This document shows, piece after piece, positions 3,337 to 59,043 of a DNA stretch of 64,000 nt. Below the pieces are notes generated by a model. That model saw only the letters and a list, made by a program, of their open reading frames with translations, was not told the origin of the DNA and did no database searches. Origin of the DNA: Eledone cirrhosa. Lineage: Eukaryota. The stretch is taken from NCBI GenBank assembly GCA_964016885.1, contig OZ024748.1, forward strand, positions 38,626,001-38,690,000. Direction: 5' to 3'. A program made the position numbers and the translations under genes. Position 1 is the first letter of the stretch. Each line of letters starts with the position of its first letter.

Positions 3337-6300
3337 CTACAGGCTGATATAGAGAGAAGACCCATTCACTCGAGCCATTCTCGCCACTTTCACCCACCTT
3401 TCATAAAACTTGCTGGGGTAGAGCACCTCTCTCTCCATCCTGATTCTTCTTCCAAAGTGGTATTTGAAAAAAAGAATCAGTTGTTGGCCGGAGAGAAAGG
3501 TGTCTAACCTCAGCCCTTTCAACCTTGTCCACCATACAACCTCCTTCGCCATAGCTATCACACAGAGGAAAACCGCCTCTCCTTCGTTTTTGAAGGAGGG
3601 TGGCGGTTTGATCATGACAATGGACTCGGTGGTCAACCGGATTGGTCCCACCCGCAACAATAATCGTTCTACATAGCCCCACAGGTCAGTGACGCCCGGT
3701 TTCTTCGTCTCGCACGTACCTCGGACAGATCTTTTTTGCAGGGTCCCTGCCGGGGCGTCCATGTCTGTAGAGCTTGTCTCGAACTGGTAGAGCTCCTCGG
3801 TAGCACTGCCAGGCCAGGGACTTTTGGAAGTTGTCCATCGGTCCCGGGCGGAAGGTCCTACCGAACAAACTGGCCAGTTCATCTTCCTCTACGCCTAGAG
3901 TTTCACCGAGCGCGTCGTCGTACTTGCTGCGGATCAACCCTCTATAGAATGACGAAGTGGAGTCTCCACTGATCGCCGGGTCCGCCTGCCAGAGAGCTGT
4001 GAGCGCCTGAGCACATTCGATGTGCCAGTCGCCCATTTTCCTCGGTTTTGCTTGACCCAGGACTGCAGCTCGGTCAGCGAGACGAGTCGTGGGAAGGCTC
4101 GCCTCACGAACGGGGCCCACACCGGTTGTCCGGTGAGGAATACGTAGAGATGCCTCACCCTGATCGCGTGTTTGCGCATCGTCAACCACGGCATCCCCAG
4201 CCCTCCGTTAGAAGGGTGTTGGCAGCAGATGGATCTTCTCACCAAAGGAGCCCGCCTCTTCCAAAGGAATCGGAAGAGCGCGCGCTCCATTTTGGCGAGC
4301 GTTTGGGCTGGACAAGGCACGACGGTCAAGCGGTAGTAGATGGCGGACGCTATAATAGTGTTCGCCACCTCCGCTCGACCTTTCAAGGATAGTTTGCACT
4401 CGTCCCACTTCTGGGTGAGTGCAAACACCTTGGCCGTCACTTCGTTCCAGTTCTTCTCCCCCTGGAGGTCCGGACCAAACCAGACCCCGAGCATCTTTAC
4501 CGGTCCTTCCGTCCAGCGTCCGACGACGCCATCGAAAGGCATCGGTTTGCCTCTCCACGATCCGAGTTGCAAACCGATGGACTTGTCCCGGTTCAGCTTC
4601 GCTCCTGTGAAACTTTCGTATTCCTTCAGTAAGGTGCCGACTTCCTCGATCTGCGAGGCGCTCGACACCATTACTGTCACGTCGTAGGCCGACGTCGCTT
4701 TCCGCAGTCCCGGTTCCAGAGGGATGCCCTGCAATAGCTCCAGCTTCCGCAGTAGTGGCTCGAGAGTCAGTACGTAAGAAGGGAGGAGAGAAGGCATCCC
4801 TGTCGAATGGATCGCGGAATATGGAACGGATCCGAGAGGTAGCCGTTCACCTTGACCCTTGAGCAGATGTTGCTGTTGTGCATTGCAGCAATCCAGCCCC
4901 TGAAAACGGGTCCGAGGCCTGCCGCCTCGAGCACCGCATCCAGGTAACGATGGTTAACCCTATCGAAAGCCTTAGACTGATCCAAGTTGATCAGGGCCCC
5001 ACCGAAGCCGGGTTTACACCCTACCCTCTCTATGATGTATCGCATGAGGTGGAGGTTGTCGTGTATGGACCTGGTCGGGATTGCGCATGTCTGCGCTTCT
5101 CCCACCAGGTTCTCGACGACAGCGCCAGCCTCTTTGCCAACACCTTGGCCAAAATCTGTAACTCTGTGTTTAGCAGAGTTATGGGCCGGAAGATGCCTAT
5201 GTCATGCCCCTTATTCTCGTCCTTCCTGATTAGTGTGACCACGCCTCCGGTTACAGAACTGGGAATTCTCCCGTTCTGTTGCCAGTTGCAGTAGACCGCT
5301 TCCAGGAGACCGGAGAATAAGTCCGGCATTGCTACGTAAAATTCGTAGGGTAGACCGTCGAGACCTGGAGATTTGCGTTGGCCGCATTGGTTCAGCGCGT
5401 CCCCTATCTCAGTGGCTGAAATCGGCTTTTCGCAGAACTTTGCCTCGCTGTCCGAGAGTCGCAGTAGGCCGTCGAGGTATGGACCGAAATCCATAGCCTC
5501 TCCCGGCGCGCCGCCCCTCCCGAACAGTTGAGCAAAGTGCCGCTGAAAAGCCGCACACATCTGCTTCGGCTCACGTATCACGCGTCCGTTTTGGTCCTTC
5601 AAAGACCGAATCGTGGACTTGTTGCCACTTTTTGCCTCCGTCACTCGGGCCCAGCTAATAGCTTTGGCTACCTCGTTTCCCAGAGCACGTATTTTGCTTC
5701 TGACAACGCAGCGCTCGTGCTTTGCGTCGAAGAACTGGTCCAAGGCCGTTCTCGTTGCTAGCACGCTGGCTACGTTGCCACTTCTAATTGCCTCTTCTAC
5801 TTTATCTACCAGTTCCTTCTCGGTTCTATTTCTATCTAACGCTAATTCTTTACTAAAAACTATCGAGTCTAATCTAACTGCCCTCTTGAGAGAGTACCAC
5901 CATCTGTTGTTGACAATGGCCCCTGTCGAATGCTGTTTAACTAAAGTGCTAATCCGTCTACTGTAGGCTTCCAGTAGCCGGGTCCTTGTCTATGGGTTTT
6001 ATCAAGGTTGGCCATGCAGGTCACTAGTTTGTGATCTGAATAGGCAACCATGAACATTTGTGGACAGCTTAACATGTCCCTATCCTTATTTATATCTAGA
6101 ACCCTATCTAGGTACGATCTAGATGTTCCGCTACGATTACTCCACGTCCACAGTGGCGCAGTCGGAAAATCTAGTCGATATCTATCGGCCAGGTCAAATC
6201 GGTCGATTAACTGTTTGAGGCTGTTACACCCCCCCCTTTATCGAGACATGCTCCCACATAGTCCCAACGTGCATCTAGGATTCCATTCCAGTCCCCCACT

Positions 6301-6712
6301 GAAAGCAAGGAGCGGGACGTTCCCAGAAAAGTCTCTAGACGTTTGAAGAAGTCTGGCCGCGGTGTCCCGGATGGGGCATATACAGCCACCAGCCTGAAGG
6401 CTCCACCTTCACTACCCTCAACGTCTAGGACCACCAGTCGACCCTCTGGGTCCAGATATACCGTCTGTGTTACGAGGCCCAGGTGTTTCCGCAGCAAAAC
6501 AGCAACTCCGCCCCCACCCCCAGTTGACAGAGAGATGCGTAGATCTCAAAGTCATCGAAGATGGGGGCCAGCTGTCGCTCGCTTTTGATCCTGGACTCGC
6601 AAATGGCTACCACATCCATACTGTGCGACCTGAGGTCGTTTAAGAGTTTGCCCTGTTTTCAGGGCATCCCCAGGCCGCGTACGTTCACACATCCAACTCT
6701 TATATTGGCCAT
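3337..6712 (-). pseudogene. Tx1 ORF2 (AP endonuclease + reverse transcriptase + zinc finger), disrupted
   Basis: Start MANIRVGCVNVRGL at 6712. Motifs VYAP, GDWN, SPGLDGLP, FRPITLLN, LDQSKAFDRV, IRQGC. YADD is reduced to AYDV by a 6-bp deletion. Several frameshifts. Confidence 0.92.
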
Positions 6713-6743
6713 GTTGGTGCTGAAAAGTTAAAAGAGGAAGAGA

Positions 6744-8644
6744 TCACTCACCCTTCGTCTCCTGGGGACCAGGCCGCACGATTTCCATGGGGGTATTGGA
6801 GGGATTGTCTGGATGGGTGGTGCTTTCCGGCGGGGTGGGGACGGAAATGGTTGGTGGGGTGGGGTCTGGTGGAATGGGGGTGTCTGGGGTGGGGAGACAT
6901 TTGAGAAGGACTCGGTTGAGTGGTTTCACGCAGGAATTCCCCACATCCTTCTCAAATGTTTCTTTTAGGGACCTATAAGTTTGTATAGGGACCCTAATCA
7001 GTTTTAGGTTTAGTTTTTTGCTATTTTTAATAGAGTGGGCGAAAGTTTTCCCTTCGGTGAAAACCGAAGGGTCGTTCGTGATGGTCTCCATTAGTGTTTT
7101 GTTTTCAGTGTTTATGTAAGTGTAAGTGTAATTTTCTTGTGCTGTGTTTGTTTTTGTCTGTAGTTCTTGTGTGTGCTTTCGTTTTGTTGTAGGTATTTTG
7201 TTTTCAGGAGGTGGGGGTTTTGTTTGTGATGTTTTTGTTGTTTGTGTTGGTGGTGGTATGTTTGTGGTAGTGTTTGCTGTTTTTTTGCTTTTGTGATGTC
7301 TTTTCTTTCTTTTCGAGCGATGGGGTTCTCCCTCGTTTTCACTGGGTGATGGCGAGATAGCCTCATCTGTTGTATCGTCTGTGTGATTGGGGAGGGGTAT
7401 GTCTTGGGGAGCTGTTGTGTCTGTATGTGATTTTGCAGTGGTTTTAGGTGGAGTGGGGTTGTGTGGGACTGTGTTTGTTGTGGTTATTTTTGTGTGTTGG
7501 TGTTGTTGTTGTTGTGATGGTGTTGGTGGTTGTGTTGTTTTGATGGGTGTCGGCAGAAGAGCCTTTTTTTATTCATTAATTTAGGACAGGAAGCCCTCAG
7601 GTGACCCCTGCTAAAGCAATGGTAACATGAAGGCCACCTACCCTCAACCGTGAATCCGTCCAGGAGTACACGTTGTGGGATCATAGCTATTCGCTCTGGG
7701 CTCATTTGCACCAGAACTTCAATGCTAGTCCCATTGAATACATCTCTGGGGGACTTTCCTACTGACAGTATTCTATCTTCATCAAAATTGATGAAGCCGC
7801 ACAGCATCCACCATATGTTCACCTTTGGTGTGACACTCGTGATTTTGATCTTTTGTGTCCTTTTTCCCATGTATGTAGGGAAAAAGGTGTACAGGTTGGA
7901 TACAATTGGCGACACAGAGTAATTTTGGGCCGTCAATTGATCCTTCATGAGTACCGAAATACTCCCCAAAAGTTTGCTTCTTTGAATGAATGCAATATCA
8001 TTCATTGAATTTTTGAAAACCAGTTCAATTTCTTTCTGTGACAATTGGACTGGTTTTCGGGTAGAATTGGAAACTGTCCTAAAATTATCGTTTTGAGAGC
8101 AGTTTCCTTGCGAATTTCTACCGGAGAATTGATGCTGAACGCACCATTTTTTTTCGAAAGTGACATATCTCCTAGCGTCCTTTAAAAGTTGTTCAGCATT
8201 TGTTATGTCGAGAATTATCAGTTCCTCCTTTTTTTGAACTGTCTCTGCAAAGGAGAATTTTTGGTTTCTTGGTGGAATTATCCGTGTTGGTGGCGTTGTC
8301 ATTATTGTTGTTATTGTTGTTATTCTTGTTGTCACCGATGTTGATATTATTCGTATTTTCCTTGGTGTTGTTGTTGTCTTTGATGCTGGTGTTATTGGTG
8401 TTGTCTTTATTTTTTCTTTGTTGTTGTTATCATTGTTGTTTTCATCATTATTATTGGTGTTGCTGTTATTTTTGTTGTCATTGAACTGTTTGGTGTCATT
8501 TGTGTTGTTTGGATATGAATTTGTTTTTGTATTTTCATTTCGTCTTTCCATCTCTATAGTATCTAGTGAAGAAGACGATGTTGACTGCGAGCTTTGTAGT
8601 CTTACCGCCTCTCCAACACCATTATCGTTGGACGCAGCGTTCAT
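6744..8644 (-). pseudogene. Tx1 ORF1 (gag-like, CCHC zinc knuckle), frameshifted
   Basis: CYHCFSRGHLRASC knuckle in ORF 7484..8644. Asn/Thr and Pro-rich low-complexity segments. Stop lies ~30 nt before the ORF2 ATG. Confidence 0.8.
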
Positions 8645-8864
8645 AACGTAATCAAACTTTTACAATATTTTTTCCAAGATTCGATGGACAAAAAATTTTT
8701 CAAACGGATATTTCGCCCCATGTAGGGGCGAAAATGAGTTGACCCACCACCTGAAGGTCCAGACGGGGGGTCAAGTTACACAATAATATAAAATTTAACT
8801 GAAAACTCACGTTTTTTTCTTACATAAATTAACGGAAACTTCTCCGCGAAGTGACACACGTTTG

Positions 8865-14312: not shown

Positions 14313-14375
14313 TACACACATTATATATATATATTTATATAATCTTTCACTCGCTATCGGTCTGTCTATCTATCT

Positions 14376-16205
<1,830 letters not shown>

Positions 16206-21675: not shown

Positions 21676-21865
21676 AACCAGTAAGACCCCGACAGCTGAG
21701 CTCAAGCCGTTTCGACGGCTAATTCTGGACTCCAGAATTAGCCGTCGAAACGGCTTGAGCTCAGCTGTCGGGGTCTTACTGGTTCCTATTACCCAGTCTA
21801 CTACCTCAAGTATTGAGTACTTTGGTGCGTTATGGTCCACCTGGTTCCTTACCACAATTCCTTCG

Positions 21866-21868
<3 letters not shown>
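21672..21868 (+). mobile_element. Half-hammerhead element, family K, with a ~58-bp perfect hairpin
   Basis: Palindrome centred on CTGGACTCCAG (~21730). (TA)n on both sides. Confidence 0.85.
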
Positions 21869-21909
<41 letters not shown>

Positions 21910-23040
21910 TCGGATACATAAGTAAGTTCGGATACATAAGGAACGAACTAACACGTATCCGCAACAAATGCACCGATGCAAGAGACCGAGACACACACAC
22001 CACACATTTCCTGGAAGTACTTAAACTGAACGGATACTCGACGTCCACCGCGAACCGAGCCAGAAACAACAGAGGACACCACACCCGAGGCACTAACACC
22101 TGCTTCCTGAAGCTCCCACACTTCAGTGACAAAACAACAACAGCCATCCGAAGACCTATCAGACGAGAGGGACTAGATATCCAACTAGCCCACTCAGGAC
22201 CTTCTCTACGCGGACAGCTAACCAAAAAACACTCCACCAGACATGACAGCCGCTGCAGGTTAGCCAACTGCCCCATCAACGACACAGACCTATGCCACCA
22301 GGCTTACGTAGTATACAGATTAGAGTGCGACAAATGCAGCAATTTCAACATAGGTAGCACCACCAGACAACGTCACATAAGAATAAACGAACACCTCAAT
22401 ACTAACGCTTCCTCATTTAAGAAACACCTGGTGAAATGCAAAAACACCGACAAAAACATAATAGTTAGGATAGAAGCTAAGGAAAGAAACCTCGGAAATC
22501 TTAGAATTAAAGAAGCACTAATTATAGACAAAACGCAACGACCAATCAATAAGAGATTAGAACACAACACTCAATTTTTAACATGAAAGAGCACACTTAC
22601 ACCTCCACGTACCCTCTCTCTCTCACACACACACGCACACGCACACACACACACACGCTTACACCTCCACTTATTCTCTCTCTCACACACACACAAAGAC
22701 CAGTTTTAACATGATAGAACATCTAGCCCCCACATTTACATATAAACATATCCTCTCACACTCACACAAACACACGCACACACACGCATGCTTACACCTT
22801 CACGTATTCTCCCACACACACTTTAACATACATGTCCTTTTAAAGGGAGACAACTCCTTACTCACCTAACCTTCACTCTTTGACATTACAAATAGAATGG
22901 AATTTCTATACCATTTCCTGTCAGCATGACTTGGCAGCTAATTAGAACACTGGATTAACCCCTTTACTTCTCTCCGAAGAAGAGATATTATCTCGAAAAT
23001 TAAGGATATTCAAATAAATTTAAGGTAAAAGACTAATTGT
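21910..23040 (+). mobile_element. Penelope-like element 3' part: RT thumb/linker, GIY-YIG endonuclease, pLTR with HHR
   Basis: LKLNGY, CRLANCP, VVYRLECDKC..NIGSTTR...RINEH, IKEALII. Stop at 22586. Confidence 0.85.
22972..23005 (+). ncRNA. Minimal hammerhead candidate in the PLE 3' region
   Basis: tct-CCGAAGA-a-GAGAT att ATCTC-GAAA-at-TA-agg. Core is variant and stem I is short. Confidence 0.45.
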
Positions 23041-24420: not shown

Positions 24421-26343
24421 GTTGTTATCTCTTTCTCTTAATTTCGAGTATATTTTTTGACCGGTCACCTTCCTGGTGGCAAGGTTGTAAAAGAAAAGAA
24501 ATTGTCATCCCTTGAATCGCAAGAATGGTTTGCAAATTTTGAAGGTGCCAGCTATCGCAGCCATTTGTAGACTATGAATTAGGGAGCTGCGCTTTTTGTC
24601 CGCAAATCCAAGTTCAGTCATACTTTGGTCCAAGCGGGTTGGTATATAACCCGTAGCTCCAATAATGATGGATATGAAGCTAAAGGTGTATCTTGGATAC
24701 TGGATTTGTAAACTCCTCATCAATGGTCCGTAGATGTCCTCCTTCTCATGTATTTTTCTGACAACGTTTACATCAAGTGGGCAGCTGATCCCCACAACAG
24801 AACACGTTTTCAATGTGTGGTCCCAAACAACAATATCAGGCCGGTTGTGCTTTAATTTGGTGGCAGTTTTTATTTTCAGGTTCCACCAGTATTCCTTAGT
24901 GCCATCTGTCGCAATATATTCTTCCTCGTTTGTTGTTAATTTTGTTTTCCGAAGTGCGTTCCAGATGGTTCTAGCTATCCCATCGTGTCTCATGGGGAGG
25001 TAGTAGCGAGATGACATTCTTTCGCAGCTGGCAACAATGTGGCTTACATCCTTGATCTTTGTTTTACATAGCCTACATTTATTGTCAGCTGCTGGCCCTC
25101 CTCTTTTGTGCAGCAGATATTTGGTAGGGAGTTCTTGTTCCTGTATTGCATAGAGATATCCCTCAAGGTGTGATGTCATAAACTTGTCGGAACTCCATGC
25201 CAGGCTTTTTGAGTGGTTTATCCCCTCTATGGCCTGTGTTTGACGCCTCAAGTATCCATGCACAACTGTTCCTGTAAATTGGTCAATTTTTTTTATCTTG
25301 TTTGAACATTGAATAGGATCTTCCGATTTCTCTGGGTGAGAGATTTATATCAGGCTTTATTCCATATCTCTCCTCCAGATCAGTCGCTATTCTAATGATA
25401 TTTTTTTTTCATGCTCATAAACCTGGGCAAGATGGTTGCCAACCTTTTTCCTCTGTTGAAGGTGTTGCTTCAGTGTTACTATCCGGGTCTCATATGTTGT
25501 TAATATTGATTTTAGACCCCGGCCACCTTTCTTGCGTGAGAAGTATAGCCTATCCACATCACCATTGATGTTAAAGTTCCCAGTAACACTGAGAAGTTTT
25601 CGAGTTCTAACATCCATCTCACTTAGTTCTTGCAATGACCAGTTCAGCAGGCCAAATGTTGGCGTTAGAATTGGCACAGCATAAGTATTGTGGGCAATGT
25701 ATTTGTTGTACGCTGACAGTTCTGATGACCATATTTTCTTTACTCTTCTGAGGTATTCAGTTCTGGTTCTCTCCTTATTTATGGGTCCATCATATCTGAC
25801 ATTCTCATCCTATCCAAGATATCTGTAGTTGTCACCTGACTGTAGAGGTTGTATTGTCAGGCCGTTCATCTCTAGATTTCTAGAGGAGGGCACAGCTCTT
25901 CCACGTTTTACTGCCAAATATGCACATTTGGACTCACCAAATTTCATTTTGATGTCGGTTGAAAATTGTGTAATGAGGTCCAATTGTTTCTTGATGTCAT
26001 TGATATTTGGCCCATACAACTTCAGGTCATCAACAAAGAAAAGATGGGAGATACTTCTGGGCCCACTTCTTTGTCCACCTTGTTTCCTGAGTAGGTAAGA
26101 TAGTGGATTCAGTGAGAGAACGAAGAGTAGCACTGACAAGCTATCACCCTTAAAGATGCCCTTCTGGTAATGTATCTTATCAGTCTTAACTTGCTCCTTC
26201 TCACCTCTAAGGATCAAATTGGTGTACCAGTTCTTGGTCAGGCGTTCAACAGCAGCTACCAATGGTTGTGGGACTTTAGCTAACTGTAAAGCCTTAATAA
26301 TCCACCCATGAGGTACACTATCAAATTCTTTTTGATAGTCCAT
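24421..26343 (-). mobile_element. 5'-truncated R4-clade LINE (RT + CCHC + restriction-like endonuclease) in (CATA)n
   Basis: [48 protein letters not shown]. Stops and frameshifts present. Confidence 0.9.
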
Positions 26344-27088
26344 GGTTGTATGTATGCACGCATGTATGTATGTATATATGTATGTATCTATATATGTATG
26401 TGTATGGTCTTATATATGTATATATGCATGTATGTGTGTATGGTTGTATGTATGTATATATGTATGTATGTAAGTGTGGCTGTATGAATAAATGTACGTA
26501 TGAATATATACATGCATGAATATATGTATGTGTATATGTATATATGTATATATGTATGTATATATGTATGTATGTGTATTTACACACTTTACACACTTTT
26601 GGATGGCCGTTGACTCTCATGAGTTCTTCCGCCCTTTGTATATACACATGTACCGCACGGTTAAACCACTGGGAGTGAGGGACCACTAGCCTTTGTCAGG
26701 GCGTTCTTCTAATTATTGATAATGGTATATCATGCGATGGCCATACTCGATAACGAGGGGGCAGCCATCATCATGTATGTGTATATATGCATGTATGTAT
26801 ATGTGTATGTATGTATAACTGTATGTATGTAAGTATGTAAATAGGATATATAATTATATAAACGTTCACCACATGACATTCAAGGTTAAATATATGAATA
26901 AGTCTGGTGAAATAATTATTTCCAGGAACAAATAAAGAGAACAAATAAAGACGCCAGGACCTTGTAACTGGAAAGTGAACTTTTTATTGTAACATGACTG
27001 TGATAGGAAATACACTGTATGTTTGTTTGTATATGTTGGTATGTGTAAAGTTTAAGACGATACCTATATATAAGTGTGTGTGTGTGCA

Positions 27089-46609: not shown

Positions 46610-49600
46610 CGGTGTGGTTAAGAAAAACAGCATCGAGCTAATGAAACTGAGGAGCAGAGGACAACTAGGTTATCCACATTAGTTGCCTACAACGCAAGAC
46701 TCAATACTTCACATTCATCACATCGATACTCAGTAGAAAACCTTGCGGCCCGTATGACAAAAAAATGCACAAACCACTGCTGCTTCACGATCAAGTGAGT
46801 CTACAGAGGAACGTACTATTCGGTTAGCACTGAATGCTGCCGCGACTGCTGCCTCAAGAGCTGCGGAGACACCTGAACAGCGTGCAACTCGAAGAAAACA
46901 CAATGCTGCTGCGACTGCTGCCTCAAGAGCTGCGGAGACACCTGAACAGCGTGCAACTCGAAGAAAACACAATGCTGCTGCGACTGCTGTCTCGAGAGCT
47001 GCGGAGACACCTGAACAACGCATACGTCGCCAGGCTTCCGATTGTGCTTATCGTACTGCTGCGATAGCTTCTGAAACATTGGTTGAAAGAACTACTCGAC
47101 TACAAACGATTGCGCATCATAAAGCTGTTCTGCTTGGTGCATCCAAGCCTACGAGGAATAGATGGGTGTTTAAAGCCTTTCATTATGACCCCTCTGAAAA
47201 TTATGCTGACCACAAAGATGTTGCCATTGGTCGTATGTCCAAAATCTGTCTACACTGTAAAGCAATAACTTGGCCGAGAGAGCCTGTTGGTCTATGCTGC
47301 TCAAATGGAAAGGTTTGTCTGCCCAACAGCCCTGAAACTCCACAGCCCTTAAAGTCCCTTCTGCTTGGTGAGCATCCATATTCTCAAGATTTCATGAACC
47401 GAATACGGGCATACAATTCACCATTTCAAATGACAAGGTGTGGTCATAAGCCCATATCTTATGGAAACTTTAATCCCACTTTTACCATTCAGGGACAGAC
47501 GTACCATTTAATCGGTTCTCTTCATCATAATTTTCTTCAGATATACTTCATGGGACTAGAGAGAGAGAAAATTGCACGTAGGGCTGCTGTTGCTCCAGGC
47601 ACATACACGGCTGTTCTTGGACCTCTTCAGGAAATGCTTCATGAGCACAACCGGTATATCAACCAATTTAAAACGGCTATTTAACGACGCCGGGCAGACA
47701 ATGGCAACTTTAAGGTTGTTATTAGAAGTGACAGGACTCCTGTTGGGGAACATCACCGCTGTTACAACCGACCCGAAACAGAGGAGGTTGCTGTTTTGCT
47801 TTGCAATCCCAATGTAACTCTTTCCAAAAGAGATATCACCCTAGAGTGGCAGATCTCCCGTGTTAAGAGGATCAATGAATTAAATCCAGCCTATGACGGC
47901 CTTCAATACCCCTTACTCTTTCCCTGTGGAGAGGATGGATACAGTCCTGATATCCCTACCATTGTACCTACAACACACCAAACAGCACAGCCTCCAAAAA
48001 TGGTTTCCCAGATGAACTTCTACAGTTACAGATTGATGGTTAGAACGAACAACTTCAACAGTCTTCGCAGAGCAGGGGCTCTTCTGAATCAGTATTGTGT
48101 GGATATGTATGCTAAAGTAGGATTTACGCCCCTTTCAGTCATGAGTACCTATACTTTTTATTAAAATCTATGCATAACCATCCTATTCCTTACTCTCACA
48201 GATTGACTCAGAACGACTTCTTTGGATTTGCCATAATCAAAAGCAGCTCCATGCAGATGAATATGCCAAGGTTCGAGACGAGGTTAATATCAATGCCATT
48301 GTAGTTGCTTCTGAGGTTGGTATTCGAATCATCCTGCCATCGTCCTATACAGGCGGCCCGAGGTATATGCATGAAAAGATGCAGGACGCTCTCACATACG
48401 TTCGTCTTTACAACCGCCCTGACCTTTTCATAACGTTCACATGACACACCCAAATGGTAGGACATCCAAATGAGCCTACCTCCAGGCCAACGACCAGCAG
48501 ATCGCCATGACATCACTGCTCGCGTTTTTCATGTTAAAGTTCGTAAAATGATTGATTTGTTTAAATTTTGTGAAATTTTCGGGCCGATCAAATGTTTTAT
48601 GTATACAGTTGAATGGCAAAAATGTGGTCTACCTCACGCCCACATCATACTCTGGCTACAAAGCAAACTTCGACCGTCTGACGTGGACACAGTCATAAGT
48701 GCAGAATTTTCAAATCCCAATGAAGACACCCAGTTGTACGAAATCATTCGAAAAAATATGGTTCATGGGCCATGTCGGCACTTTAATTCTACGTCTTCAT
48801 GCATGGCAAACGGAAAATGCACTAATAAATATCCACGAAAGCTTTTGTCTGAGACAATCACAGGTAACGACGGTTACCCAATATATCGCAGAAGAGCTCC
48901 TGGACATGGCGGTTCCACAGCAACAATCAAACATGGATCTAACCGAGAATTTACAATTGACAATCAATGGGTTGTTCCACATAACAAGATGCTATGCAAG
49001 ACATTTAATGCGCATATTAACGTTGAATATTGTAACTCAGTTAAATCTATACGTTACGTTTGCAAATACGTCAATAAGGGATTCGATAGAGCCGTCTTTC
49101 AAGTGGCACAAACAGGAACAGCAGCTGCACCAACAGATGAGGTAGAACTCTTTCAAATAGGGCGTTATATCTCAACTAATGAGGCAGTTTGGAGAACGTT
49201 TGATTTCCCTATACACGAGCGATTCCCCCCTGTTCAACATCTCAGTGTTCCCTTAGAGGACAAGCAGAGAGTTTACTTCACTGAAGAAAACTTACGTCAA
49301 CAGGTTCTTGCCCCACGTAGGACAACTTTAACTGCATTTTTCGAACTCTGTACGGTTGACTCCTACGCAAAAACTCTTCTGTATGTTGATGTTCCTCATT
49401 ATTATTCTTGGAACCACTCAACTTGCTTATGGCAAAGAAGAAAACAGGGCCGACATATCGAATCAGATCCTGCCATTTTTGAAAGTGACACAATAGGACG
49501 CGTCTATACTGTTCATCCTTCGAATGCTTCCATCTTCGACTGCTGCTTCACGTTGTACGTGGAGCAACATCCTTTGCAGCCCTTTGCACAGTGAACGGTC

Positions 49601-50907
49601 AATTATGCAAGACATTCAAGGACGCATGCTTTAAACGGGGGCTTATCGATACGGACAACCATTATGAGAGTACACTTGAGGAAGCGTCTCTCCGTCGATC
49701 TCCATCAAAGCTTCGGCATCTATTCGCCATTATGCTGGTTTTCTGCAACTTTGTTAACTCGCCTTTGTTGTGGAATATATGGCTTCAAACCCATCAAGCT
49801 ACTGAAAATTCCACCACTGCTTTTACCCCCTCTATGTATAACGCTGGTCTAATTACCTTGGAGGACTTAGTTGTGGCAATTGGAGGCCAACGTTTGGAGG
49901 CATACTGCCTCCCTTCTCCGGATAGAAACCAAGAGCAAACTTGTAATCGACTCTTCCTTAGAGAAACCAGCTACGACAAAACCAAGCTTCGACAATACGT
50001 AGCTTTCAACGAGCCTCTCCTTAATCCAGATCAAGAATCTGCATACAAATCCGTTCTAAACAAGGTATACAGCAATACTGGCGGGATTATCTTCATAGAT
50101 GCACCTGGAGGGACCGGTAAAACATTTCTGCTTAATCTTATTGTTGCTAAGGTAAGGCAGAATGACGACAATGCACATGCTGTTGCCTCTTCCGGTATAG
50201 CTGCGACTCTTTCAGAAGGTGGCCGCACAGCACACTCGACCTTCAAGCTGCCGCTGAATGTCGTCCATCAAGAGAATCCCATCTGCAATATCTCACATAG
50301 TTCTGACGAAGCTGCTCTGTTGAAAAGCTGTAAACTAATTGTGTAGGATGAGGCAACCTTGTCCCCTAAAGGCCAATCTCTTAAAGTTGTTGGTCTGGTT
50401 CTTCGAACCCATTGCATTTCACATGGTCAGTTTTACGTTGGCTGTTCTCGAGTTGGTAATCCTGACAACCTATTTATTTATGCTCCTGATGGGAAAACCA
50501 AAAATGTTGTGTATAAATCTGCTCTTCAATAATCCAAAAGACAATGAGTGCTCCCACCCAACATCCATCTCTTTTTATAACGATTTGCTCATCCATCAGT
50601 TCCCCCCTGTTATATATATATATGTATTGTTATTCCAACCTTTGCACATAATAGTGTCTATTATTCACTTCACTTCTCTATTTCATGATACGCTTTTACT
50701 GTTGTCAACAAAATTTATACCTAGACTGGATTTCTGTTGTTACATGGGATAACGGATGACACCGAGCTCACATATTAATTATTTCGCTGGAATAGTGCCT
50801 AAGGTTTTCATGTTTACACAAAGTATGTATTCAAATTTACTTTGTTTAGTTTAATGAGCTACATCGAAAGTTACTTGAACCATCCAAAGGACGGGTAGTT
50901 TAGCTAG
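46610..50907 (+). mobile_element. Helitron, Rep/Hel pseudogene with an internally deleted helicase
   Basis: PDLFITFT, VEWQKCGLPHAH, YVCKYVNKG, DAPGGTGKTF, GGRTAHSTFKLP, HGQFYVGCSRVG. 3' end ACGGGTAGTTTAG-CTAG|T. 5' end not resolved. Confidence 0.92.
48117..48201 (+). other. 85-bp GT-AG intron in Helitron Rep
   Basis: GCTAAA|GTAGGA...CTCACAG|ATTGAC. Removal restores DMYAK-IDSERL in frame. Confidence 0.8.
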
Positions 50908-57009: not shown

Positions 57010-57267
57010 CCACCACGGTGTCTGCTTCATATCCTTTCCAACGACACATCCTCATACTCGTGTTTCTTCAAACTATTTACACTTTCACACATAAATAAAG
57101 AAAATATATTTGTTCATTAATAGATATTACAAAACTAGGATTTAGTTGAAGAACAGAATCGGTGGAGAGCCCGGATCCCTGTCTGTGTGTCCTGGATGCA
57201 AGAATGGCTAAGTTAAAGAGTTTGCTTCAGATTCTTGAGTTCCTGGTGTCAACTCTATTGTGTAATA

Positions 57268-57461
57268 CGAGGGTCGACTGAAAAGTTCACAGGTTGACTA
57301 TGAAGGAGTGATGCTAGAGCTGTGAAATCTTGCATGTATTAATTTCAACTCTTCTTAATAACTGCATTGTTTCTTTCCAGGGACTATGCTGAAAAATAAA
57401 CCTCATTTGGTCATTCCATGAGAGTATCTTGATCAGCCTTTCAATTTTTCAAGCAACCCTC

Positions 57462-57462
<1 letters not shown>
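57268..57462. mobile_element. Mariner-type MITE
   Basis: TA|CGAGGGTCGACTGAAAAG ... TTTTTCAAGCAACCCTCG|TA, imperfect TIRs with a TA TSD. Confidence 0.8.
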
Positions 57463-57497
<35 letters not shown>

Positions 57498-57712
57498 GTT
57501 AAAAGTGTACATCTACATATGTATACTGAAATACTAGTATGCATATAAATACACACATGTATACATATGTACATGTACTGAGTTTTTCACTGGACACTTT
57601 ACTGTGAGTGTCCAGCTAGTCTGTATGTAACCAAACAGACAAACCGGGTTTTAGAGTCATACAGGTTTTCAAGGAAACACATTTCCTCTATTCTCCAGAG
57701 AGCCAGACAGGA

Positions 57713-57755
57713 ATATTGGACTAGTTTCGATGTTATTACATCTCATCAGCAATAT
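57713..57755 (-). ncRNA. Minimal type I hammerhead ribozyme, family A
   Basis: ATATTG-CTGATGA-GATGT aata ACATC-GAAA-CTAG-TC^-CAATAT. All core nucleotides and both stems are perfect. Confidence 0.93.
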
Positions 57756-58183
57756 ATACCCATCTTCCGGCTTCTCTAGAGAATCGTAAAAGCACATATC
57801 GTTATATGCTTTTTCTATGAAAATTAGTAGTGGGCAGACCAATTTGCATAGAACGTGAGTCATTGTACGCACCGGTTCAGCGGAAACGATCAAAACAAAT
57901 AACGAAACGAAATTAAATTTCGTTTCGCTTCTAACTCACTTTTGTATGACTGACGCTTAAACAATTAAGTTAAAAGTGTACATCTACATATGTATACTGA
58001 AATACTAGTATGCATATAAATACACACATGTATACATATGTACATGTACTGAGTTTTTCACTGGACACTTTACTGTGAGTGTCCAGCTAGTCTGTATGTA
58101 ACCAAACAGACAAACCGGGTTTTAGAGTCATACAGGTTTTCAAGGAAACACATTTCCTCTATTCTCCAGAGAGCCAGACAGGA

Positions 58184-58226
58184 ATATTGGACTAGTTTCG
58201 ATGTTATTACATCTCATCAGCAATAT
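58184..58226 (-). ncRNA. Minimal type I hammerhead ribozyme, family A
   Basis: Identical to 57713-57755. Confidence 0.93.
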
Positions 58227-58659
58227 ATACCCATCTTCTGGCTCTCTGGAGAATAGAGGAAATGTGTTTCCTTGAAAACCTGTATGACTCTAAAACCCGG
58301 TTTGTCTGTTTGGTTACATACAGACTAGCTGGACACTCACAGCAAAGTGTCCAGTGAAAAACTCAGTACATGTACATATGTATACATGTGTGTATTTATA
58401 TGCATACTAGTATTTCAGTATACATATGTAGATGTACACTTTTAACTTAATTGTTTAAGCGTCAGTCATACAAAAGTGAGTTAGAAGCGAAACGAAATTT
58501 AATTTCGTTTCTTTATTTGTTTTTATCGTTTCCGCTGAACCGGTGCGTACAATGACTCACGTTCTATGCAAATTGGTCTGCCCACTACTAATTTTCATAG
58601 AAAAAGCATATAACGATATGTGCTTTTACGATTCTCTAGAGAAGCCGGAAGATGGGTAT

Positions 58660-58702
58660 ATATTACTGATGAGATGTAATAACATCGAAACTAGTCCAAT
58701 AT
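58660..58702 (+). ncRNA. Minimal type I hammerhead ribozyme, family A (one stem I mismatch)
   Basis: ATATTA-CTGATGA-GATGT aata ACATC-GAAA-CTAG-TC-CAATAT. Confidence 0.85.
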
Positions 58703-58989
58703 TCCTGTCTGGCTCTCTGGAGAATAGAGGAAATGTGTTTCCTTGAAAACCTGTATGACTCTAAAACCCGGTTTGTCTGTTTGGTTACATACAGACTAGC
58801 TGGACACTCACAGTAAAATGTCCAGTGAAAAACTCAGTACATGTACATATGTATACATGTGTGTATTTATATGCATACTAGTATTTCAGTATACATATGT
58901 AGATGTACACTTTTAACTTAATTGTTTAAGCGTCAGTCATACAAAAGTGAGTTAGAAGCGAAACGAAATTTAATTTCGTTTCGTTATTT

Positions 58990-59043
<54 letters not shown>

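Follow-up and report, generated by a model that had tools for sequence, protein, structure and literature searches.

A 471-bp non-coding repeat bearing a type I hammerhead motif was found in the 64,000-nt stretch of Eledone cirrhosa contig OZ024748.1 analysed here (the window), where it forms a double insertion whose two multimeric arms, of opposite orientation, meet 5' to 5' within a (TA)n tract. The insertion is a real and young copy of a new family within a known class. The anatomy of the family's insertions, the rule governing their ends, the microhomology at their junctions, their target duplications, the haplotypes shared between arms and the covariation of the hammerhead stems together point to a common route: the repeat is probably inserted, with two fixed ends, by a PLE reverse transcriptase-endonuclease that acts in trans on a monomer RNA, itself probably circular.

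The features of the locus (window 57463-59040) are collected in Table 1. A repeat search of the window returned direct repeats of period 471 in both halves (57487-57772/57958-58243 and 58237-58526/58708-58997, 99% identity), and the opposed arms constitute an inverted repeat of 692 nt at 99%. With monomer position 1 set at window 58237, the outer end of the left arm falls at the short site S (215-222) and that of the right arm at the long site T (286-290), the exact position of the latter being ambiguous where a T-run overlaps the TA flank. The tail carries an 11-13-bp hairpin, and at this locus only the right outer end has one. All of this bears out the sequence-only reading in its description of a non-coding 471-bp unit, present in about 1.6 copies per strand with the 5' ends together in (TA)n; the strand switch, however, lies not at 58240, as that reading had it, but at 58237-58238, where the arms meet on the two complementary sides of the extended stem I. 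A target-site duplication at this locus is unreadable in the pure TA flanks. The monomer has a GC content of 35.9% and a fold much more stable than those of its shuffled versions (z = -10.8), and the hammerhead region, too, folds better than expected by chance (z = -5.5). Among ATG-started frames, the longest within the repeat measures 64 aa. The possibility that a frame of 62-64 aa running through the hammerhead is coding was rejected, its start codon being deleted in subfamily B (see below). Five substitutions are private to single units at this locus, with one more at the junction (~0.3-0.4%); by this measure the insertion appears young, as had been claimed, although other copies of the family are younger.

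Table 1. Features of the hammerhead repeat insertion, in window coordinates
Feature	Position	Strand	Remark
Left (TA)n target tract	57463..57491	.	sequence
Left arm, ~1.6 units: monomer 412-471, 1-471, 1-216	57492..58238	-	
Type I hammerhead core, 6-bp stem I, intact	57713..57755	-	predicted cut after 57719
Predicted 471-nt monomer between two minus-strand cut sites	57719..58189	-	prediction
Type I hammerhead core, 6-bp stem I, intact	58184..58226	-	predicted cut after 58190
5'-to-5' junction	58237..58243	.	2-nt exact overlap; imperfect 6/7 match to 58243
Right arm, 1.6 units: monomer 1-471, 1-286	58237..58993	+	
Type I hammerhead, private G->A at 58665	58660..58702	+	predicted cut after 58696
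PLE-type tail, ~70 nt between two fixed ends	58924..58993	+	
Right (TA)n target tract	58994..59040	.	sequence

Other repeats were noted in the window. The TA tract in which the insertion sits adjoins the right end of a ~200-bp element (57266-57464) with terminal inverted repeats TACGAGGG...CCCTCGTA, which by its motif we take to be a mariner-like MITE. Broken Rep/helicase frames at 46758-50346 (+) are presumably Helitron-like, judged by their motifs, and retrotransposon fragments at 3337-8659 (-), 14343-15890 (+) and 24505-26409 (-) are presumably non-LTR fragments of L1/Tx1-like and restriction-like-endonuclease type, again by motif. A 54-bp tandem array of 36.5 copies with 94% matches occupies 203-2168, and the P1 PLE family is represented at 21759-22586 (+) by a C-terminal GIY-YIG fragment. 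Rfam microRNA matches in the window were dismissed as simple-repeat artefacts.

Three type I hammerheads are present at the locus, with cores at 58220 (-), 57749 (-) and 58666 (+), and Rfam HH9 matches all three (E values of 7e-6, 1e-5 and 1e-3, respectively), each under the gathering score of 52 bits. The motif is made up of stem I (AUAUUG/CAAUAU), CUGAUGA, stem II (GAUGU/ACAUC), GAAA, the palindrome ACUAGU and a GUC site. The proposal that every full unit carries such a hammerhead is upheld in that all three have the described parts, but the plus-arm copy has a mismatch in stem I, the G->A change at 58665 making the innermost pair A-C, where G is present in 91 of 93 family units. Judged by sequence, only the left arm, with two successive hammerheads 471 nt apart, could release a monomer. 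In fold predictions this monomer forms a branched circle (-160 kcal/mol). Stem I is extended, beyond an internal loop, by a helix of >20 bp. As defined in PMC4209133, a canonical hammerhead has a 6-bp helix I, a 2-bp helix III and a palindromic loop, and a minimal one is without helix III and loop 3 and has a helix I of 4-5 bp and a helix II of 7-8 bp. The present motif has an extended helix I of 6 bp, a helix II of 5 bp and a helix III of 2 bp; because helices I and III fit the former definition, its sequence places it with the canonical metazoan hammerheads, its helix III being weak and palindromic, and the term minimal, applied to it earlier, was a mislabel.

The core of the motif is nearly invariant, with 12 changes in 2,480 cells (6/1,036 in subfamily A and 6/1,444 in subfamily B), a figure to which the youth of the copies contributes. 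Stems I and II covary across A, B and the relative C: in 15 variants chosen from the three, whose relatedness inflates measures of pairing, both sides have changed in 6 of 16 pairs and 95% of cells are paired, as against 34-52% in slid controls. A covariation measure based on pair counts did not beat shuffles (239/500). Among 16 full units, 5 of 148 predicted pairs show compensatory changes, some of them beyond the hammerhead. The ACUAGU palindrome is invariant, though it formed part of the search pattern, and the cleavage triplet varies across subfamilies between GUC, GUU and GUA. A good motif is nonetheless no guarantee of cleavage, since only one of nine predicted hammerhead dimers was cleaved in bioRxiv 10.64898/2026.07.22.740005.

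The element itself is one of thousands. Subfamily A, with the 471-bp unit, has at least 1,044 candidate places in its own genome, of which 37 were scored and 36 examined; subfamily B, with a 467-bp unit ~87% identical to that of A, has at least 738, of which 40 were scored and 30 examined, 20 of these having been picked partly for length. Locus L113 was left out as a duplicate of L112, insertion and flanks occurring twice, 78 kb apart (G000:C25:5363302 and 5285104), as a segmental or an assembly duplicate. The older relative C has a 423-bp unit and at least 4,018 candidates. Round the whole unit the 471-, 467- and 423-bp versions align colinearly, with identity falling from ~87% to roughly two-thirds. 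Every one of the 65 A and B insertions has its units joined directly to each other, and no ORF is present. Arrays reach 5.1 units in A and 18.6 in B, with near-identical units; in L151 (12.1 + 6.4 units) the full units differ by one substitution and one 9-nt insertion. The earlier reading of a recently mobile tandem element is supported. The median array is longer in the GUU subfamily B than in the GUC subfamily A (3.7 vs 2.6 units), but the comparison was rejected as evidence, given that 20 of the 30 B loci were picked partly for length. DNA runs labelled as other organisms also contain the unit; a 499-nt contig in one such run, which loops with a 469-nt unit (depth 2.4), was set aside, as a tandem DNA copy looks alike. 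Subfamily A and subfamily B insertions directly adjoin each other at L023 (G000:C1:67842143-67844680), and copies sit in the TA tracts of, or beside, PLE copies at L093, L103, L183, L189 and L190. In L152 (G000:C24:25807906-25813752; 12.5 units) one arm contains a same-strand jump from monomer 104 to 468, which suggests a template switch.

Two opposed arms were found in 50 of the 65 insertions, and in several of the other 15 (L019, L022, L037 and L048) a second arm of 6-22 nt can be seen by eye; the inverted form is the norm of the family. Outer ends fall at two monomer sites, S (215-222) and T (288-290). Both ends are canonical at 44 of the 50 two-armed loci, the remaining 6 having one non-canonical end, and of these 44 loci 43 combine S with T and one (L035) has S twice, whereas none has T twice (P = 3e-12 for S-T pairing against free choice). 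The same two ends recur at 11 further loci, recovered with a short query, wherever an outer end is in view. Since the outer ends are fixed at S and T family-wide, the arm ends are not random permutations; that the arms end at differing monomer positions is accordingly right as regards S against T and wrong as regards circular permutation. Target duplications of 10-14 nt, end overlaps included, were identified at 5 of 63 loci scanned (L006, L022, L154, L160 and L164), whose flanks are other than pure TA. At the junctions, 18 of the 25 two-armed loci of family A show an overlap of at least 2 nt, where chance would give 18%; these overlaps are derived from local alignments that may include a mismatch. 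The inner ends of the two arms lie mostly at unrelated monomer positions, overlap by 1-5 nt and are not palindromes. They cluster loosely over the hammerhead (17/62, in an interval chosen after looking), and those exactly at the cut site are few, with no sharp enrichment.

The published signature of PLE insertion comprises an inverted 5'-truncated copy, a tail of 30-40 bp that is often at one end only (PMC8557442) and target duplications of 8-10 bp (PMC3846280). In vitro, purified PLE protein, a predicted dimer, cuts and extends both strands of AT-rich DNA, with RT starting at two sites inside the RNA that delimit the tail (PMC11167929). The inverted 5' arm, the tail at one end and the AT-rich target of PLE-mobilised sequences are all found in the present family (S with T at 43/44 loci). 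The autonomous RT-GIY-YIG PLEs of this genome, N1-N6, likewise lie in (TA)n and have two ends ~35-65 nt apart; their two-armed copies, where seen, have one end of each kind, and they carry a hammerhead-like motif. In ends, tail and targets the repeat thus matches both the published signature and the autonomous PLEs here, which supports the earlier suggestion that PLEs are likely to mobilise it. The inverted form had been thought undescribed, and is less strange than first claimed because it is ordinary in the family and corresponds to the published PLE signature (PMC8557442, PMC3846280); what survives of the claim is that no report of a two-armed retrozyme, or of a 471-bp family, was found in the openly available papers searched.

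Several autonomous PLE families have many intact, nearly identical frames, of 775-777 aa in N3 and N6 and 900 aa in P1. Six of the PLE families are presumably Neptune-like, a label taken from the CxxCxxC linker. The GIY-YIG family search, in which 150 of 10,595 candidates were scored, and three further protein searches gave seven families (78 loci: these six and one other), in whose termini no homology to the monomer was detected. Matches near PLEs consist only of separate insertions close by in TA tracts and of TA-rich noise; the similarity at L094, considered as a pLTR, is in fact a separate older 423-bp relative beyond the end of the PLE. As none of the seven shares the monomer, the unit is not the pLTR of any examined family, and the view that it is not merely a pLTR is supported as regards the PLEs found. 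In the 3' regions of L081, L088, L099, L184 and L201, the families N1, N2, N4, N5 and N6 have hammerhead-like motifs with UUGA replacing CUGA and, in most, an ACCGGU palindrome; N3 retains CUGAAGA, with AGUACU. The P1 family has many identical intact frames of 900-905 aa in 3,127-bp tandems and inverted pairs. Other hammerhead-bearing repeats were seen at L082 (6692 and 7151), L086 (677) and L199 (8972-9190), among them one with 459-bp spacing, one that recurs near several PLE loci and a relative with an ACAUGU palindrome, whose identity to family C is 72%.

Variants shared between units and arms carry information on the template. Cross-arm calls at recurrent variant sites are concordant in 110 cases and discordant in 15, both arms carrying the same subfamily haplotype, which speaks for a single template in each insertion. 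Of the variants private to one locus, relative to the 65 sampled, 39 fill every unit, 22 of them across both arms, while 246 are confined to single units and 28 are present in some units. For one mutation to be in all units, a monomer bottleneck followed by repeated copying is needed. Sense-strand A>G changes account for 13 of 48 all-unit variants but 30 of 308 single-unit variants (P = 0.002, counting variants found at no more than two loci); among single-unit variants A>G and T>C are about equally frequent (30 and 32), and among all-unit variants they stand at 13 to 6 (P = 0.07). This enrichment among shared variants fits what RNA editing would give. In L048 the period is 924 nt, which corresponds to the spacing of intact hammerheads because every second unit has a C3U change in its core; one deletion is also present in three copies, and the period is underivable from a shorter original by one duplication. 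In L112 a unit-specific variant is in register in the primed unit of both arms, a pattern that fits a multimeric template. Blocks in L153, L154 and L158 look duplicated after insertion, so long arrays alone are no proof of rolling. An intact core appears unneeded in the copied unit, since both arms of L026 have a G12C change in the core.

By sequence, these patterns fit best with a mixture of monomer circles and multimer templates, and it is likely that circular and linear routes are mixed. A more exclusive alternative is twin priming on a donor array's multimer transcript, linear and either uncut or cut only in part, with a circle unneeded in most events. The register of unit-specific variants in both arms of L112 and L153, the copying of L026 despite its mutated core, the finding that hammerhead cleavage is dispensable for insertion in vitro (PMC11167929) and the start of some arms on or close to the cut site (L007 at 462, L177 at 461) all speak for it. 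Donor arrays, however, accumulate unit-private mutations, as the 246 single-unit variants illustrate, yet 39 variants fill every unit; copying by a linear route alone offers no way for a mutation in one unit to reach all the others. The L048 period, as noted, is not obtainable from a shorter original by one duplication. As an account of most events it is therefore considered unlikely. The earlier proposal was of rolling reverse transcription of a circle followed by fold-back, and the indirect genomic signs of a repeatedly copied monomer template favour its first half.

The fold-back half fared less well. A single cDNA or antisense RNA that folds at a palindrome into the second arm, with an endonuclease trimming or resolving the ends, would be in keeping with the position of this locus's junction on the self-complementary extended stem I and with a published self-priming hypothesis on antisense template (PMC3846280). 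Under simple fold-back the S arm has to be at least 74 nt shorter than the T arm, or else the T arm at least 397 nt shorter than the S arm; these limits are unbroken at 30 of 43 loci, but both are broken at the other 13, this locus included (arms of ~750 and 757 nt), and for those 13 simple fold-back fails. Furthermore, both outer ends are fixed, priming-like and joined to the target, with target overlap and target duplication; the inner ends are, as described above, usually unrelated; the sense-strand A>G bias fits a sense template; and the tail ends of PLEs are demonstrated RT start sites (PMC11167929). Some weight, small as it is, is kept for fold-back because the length limits lapse if an endonuclease later cuts both ends, and we regard it as distinctly improbable. 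That the unit is only the pLTR of a further autonomous PLE, or a satellite that DNA recombination has built up from a remnant of that kind (a recombination route to satellites is discussed in bioRxiv 10.64898/2026.07.22.740005), gains something from the small sample inspected of >10,000 GIY-YIG candidates and from the occurrence of some post-insertion duplication. It is very hard to reconcile with the direct joining of unit to unit in 65/65 insertions, with no ORF between, with units of three lengths that are colinear throughout, with the exact S and T ends that multi-unit arms keep, and with the 17 loose ends inspected (of 85), none of which reaches coding-like sequence. An assembly artefact as the source of the inversion at this locus is scarcely credible: read contigs of 60-150 nt from a reduced-representation run, uninformative in this respect, hold no joint at the junction positions, but two-armed insertions make up 50 of the 65 loci, differ in their junctions and follow the same end rule, the arms here differ by private substitutions and the window is without N.

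Insertion by a PLE enzyme in trans on a monomer RNA is thus the preferred reading, in which transcription, cleavage, circularisation, the identity of the enzyme and the order of steps are inferred from the footprint described above. A tandem array would be transcribed and the transcript cut to units by the hammerheads, probably as dimers via the ACUAGU palindrome, and the units would then be closed into circles by ligation. The structured tail region would be bound by a PLE protein, likely a dimer, which would nick both (TA)n strands roughly 10 nt apart. One cDNA would then be primed at site T (~290) and the other at S (~216-221) on the same RNA sequence, helped by the pairing of a few bases, and each may continue beyond the end of the unit, making 0.1 to 12 turns. 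Joining of the cDNA 3' ends at a short microhomology would leave the arms 5' to 5', just one of the outer ends bearing a tail. A broader reading, which we hold tentatively and rate at a little short of an even chance, is that animal retrozymes are self-propagating RNA circles, with a PLE dimer priming both target strands from two fixed sites and rolling round the circle, whose size would be set by the working hammerheads (as in L048) and whose editing marks would be copied into every unit; the lineage would then be a circle-only parasite old enough to have lost its homology to any PLE terminus, and the PLE inverted-plus-tail structure would be explained as well.

Copying of retrozyme circles into genomes by PLEs has been proposed rather than shown (PMC7229834, bioRxiv 10.64898/2026.07.22.740005), and the origin of the tandem and inverted structures of PLEs was named as open in PMC8557442. 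The family-wide footprint ties retrozyme insertion to the PLE machinery and makes the proposed mechanism testable, the family offering a 471-nt substrate on which two start sites are mapped, a rule of one short and one long end, an approximate distance between the nicks, natural variants with a dead core and, in its own genome, several PLE proteins that are young and intact. Both questions, circle copying and the origin of the inverted structure, could therefore be addressed in vitro with this family's substrate and PLE proteins.

At the level of sequence the repeat has all the features of metazoan non-LTR retrozymes as given in PMC7229834 and bioRxiv 10.64898/2026.07.22.740005. Like them, it consists of short, tandem, non-coding monomers (period 471 bp) arranged from dimers to long multimers, with one conserved, covarying type I hammerhead per unit (Rfam HH9, below gathering) and, in the left arm, two consecutive complete hammerheads as far as sequence goes. 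GC is below 45%, the unit is strongly self-paired and there is no LTR organisation; target duplications, when present, exceed 4 bp (10-14 nt), and PLEs co-occur. The unit is above the 150-450 bp of PMC7229834 and within the 51-972 bp of bioRxiv 10.64898/2026.07.22.740005. In the seven PLE families compared here no pLTR homologous to the unit was detected, whereas 24 of 57 Xenopus families match Repbase (bioRxiv 10.64898/2026.07.22.740005). Two-armed 5'-to-5' insertions with fixed ends set the family apart from these retrozymes, the main texts of both papers containing no description of two-armed insertions or tails. Its hammerhead resembles those of newt/axolotl HHR_Amex1/2 (PMC7229834) and the canonical metazoan type I hammerhead (PMC4209133) in its weak palindromic helix III, with dimer action expected, and in an extended helix I with an internal loop; it differs in sequence, in having a helix III of 2 bp with a 2-nt loop and in a triplet that varies between GUC, GUU and GUA.

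With EN+ PLE insertions (PMC8557442, PMC3846280) the family shares the inverted 5'-truncated copy, the tail at one end, the microsatellite target, the junction overlap and target duplications, theirs being of 8-10 bp. Unlike EN+ PLEs, the 471-bp element has no ORF (an RT plus GIY-YIG ORF between repeats is absent from the 65 insertions), its tail is ~70 nt as against 30-40, and its arms are multi-turn repeats of one short unit. The closest experimental parallel is the in vitro system of the Anolis Poseidon PAc (PMC11167929), in which, as here, two internal RT start sites bound the tail, the target is AT-rich, both strands are cut and extended, and a hammerhead lies upstream of the start sites. 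That element is autonomous, unlike the present one, and its start sites are reported to be alike for both strands in vitro, whereas each insertion of the 471-bp family uses one of each kind.
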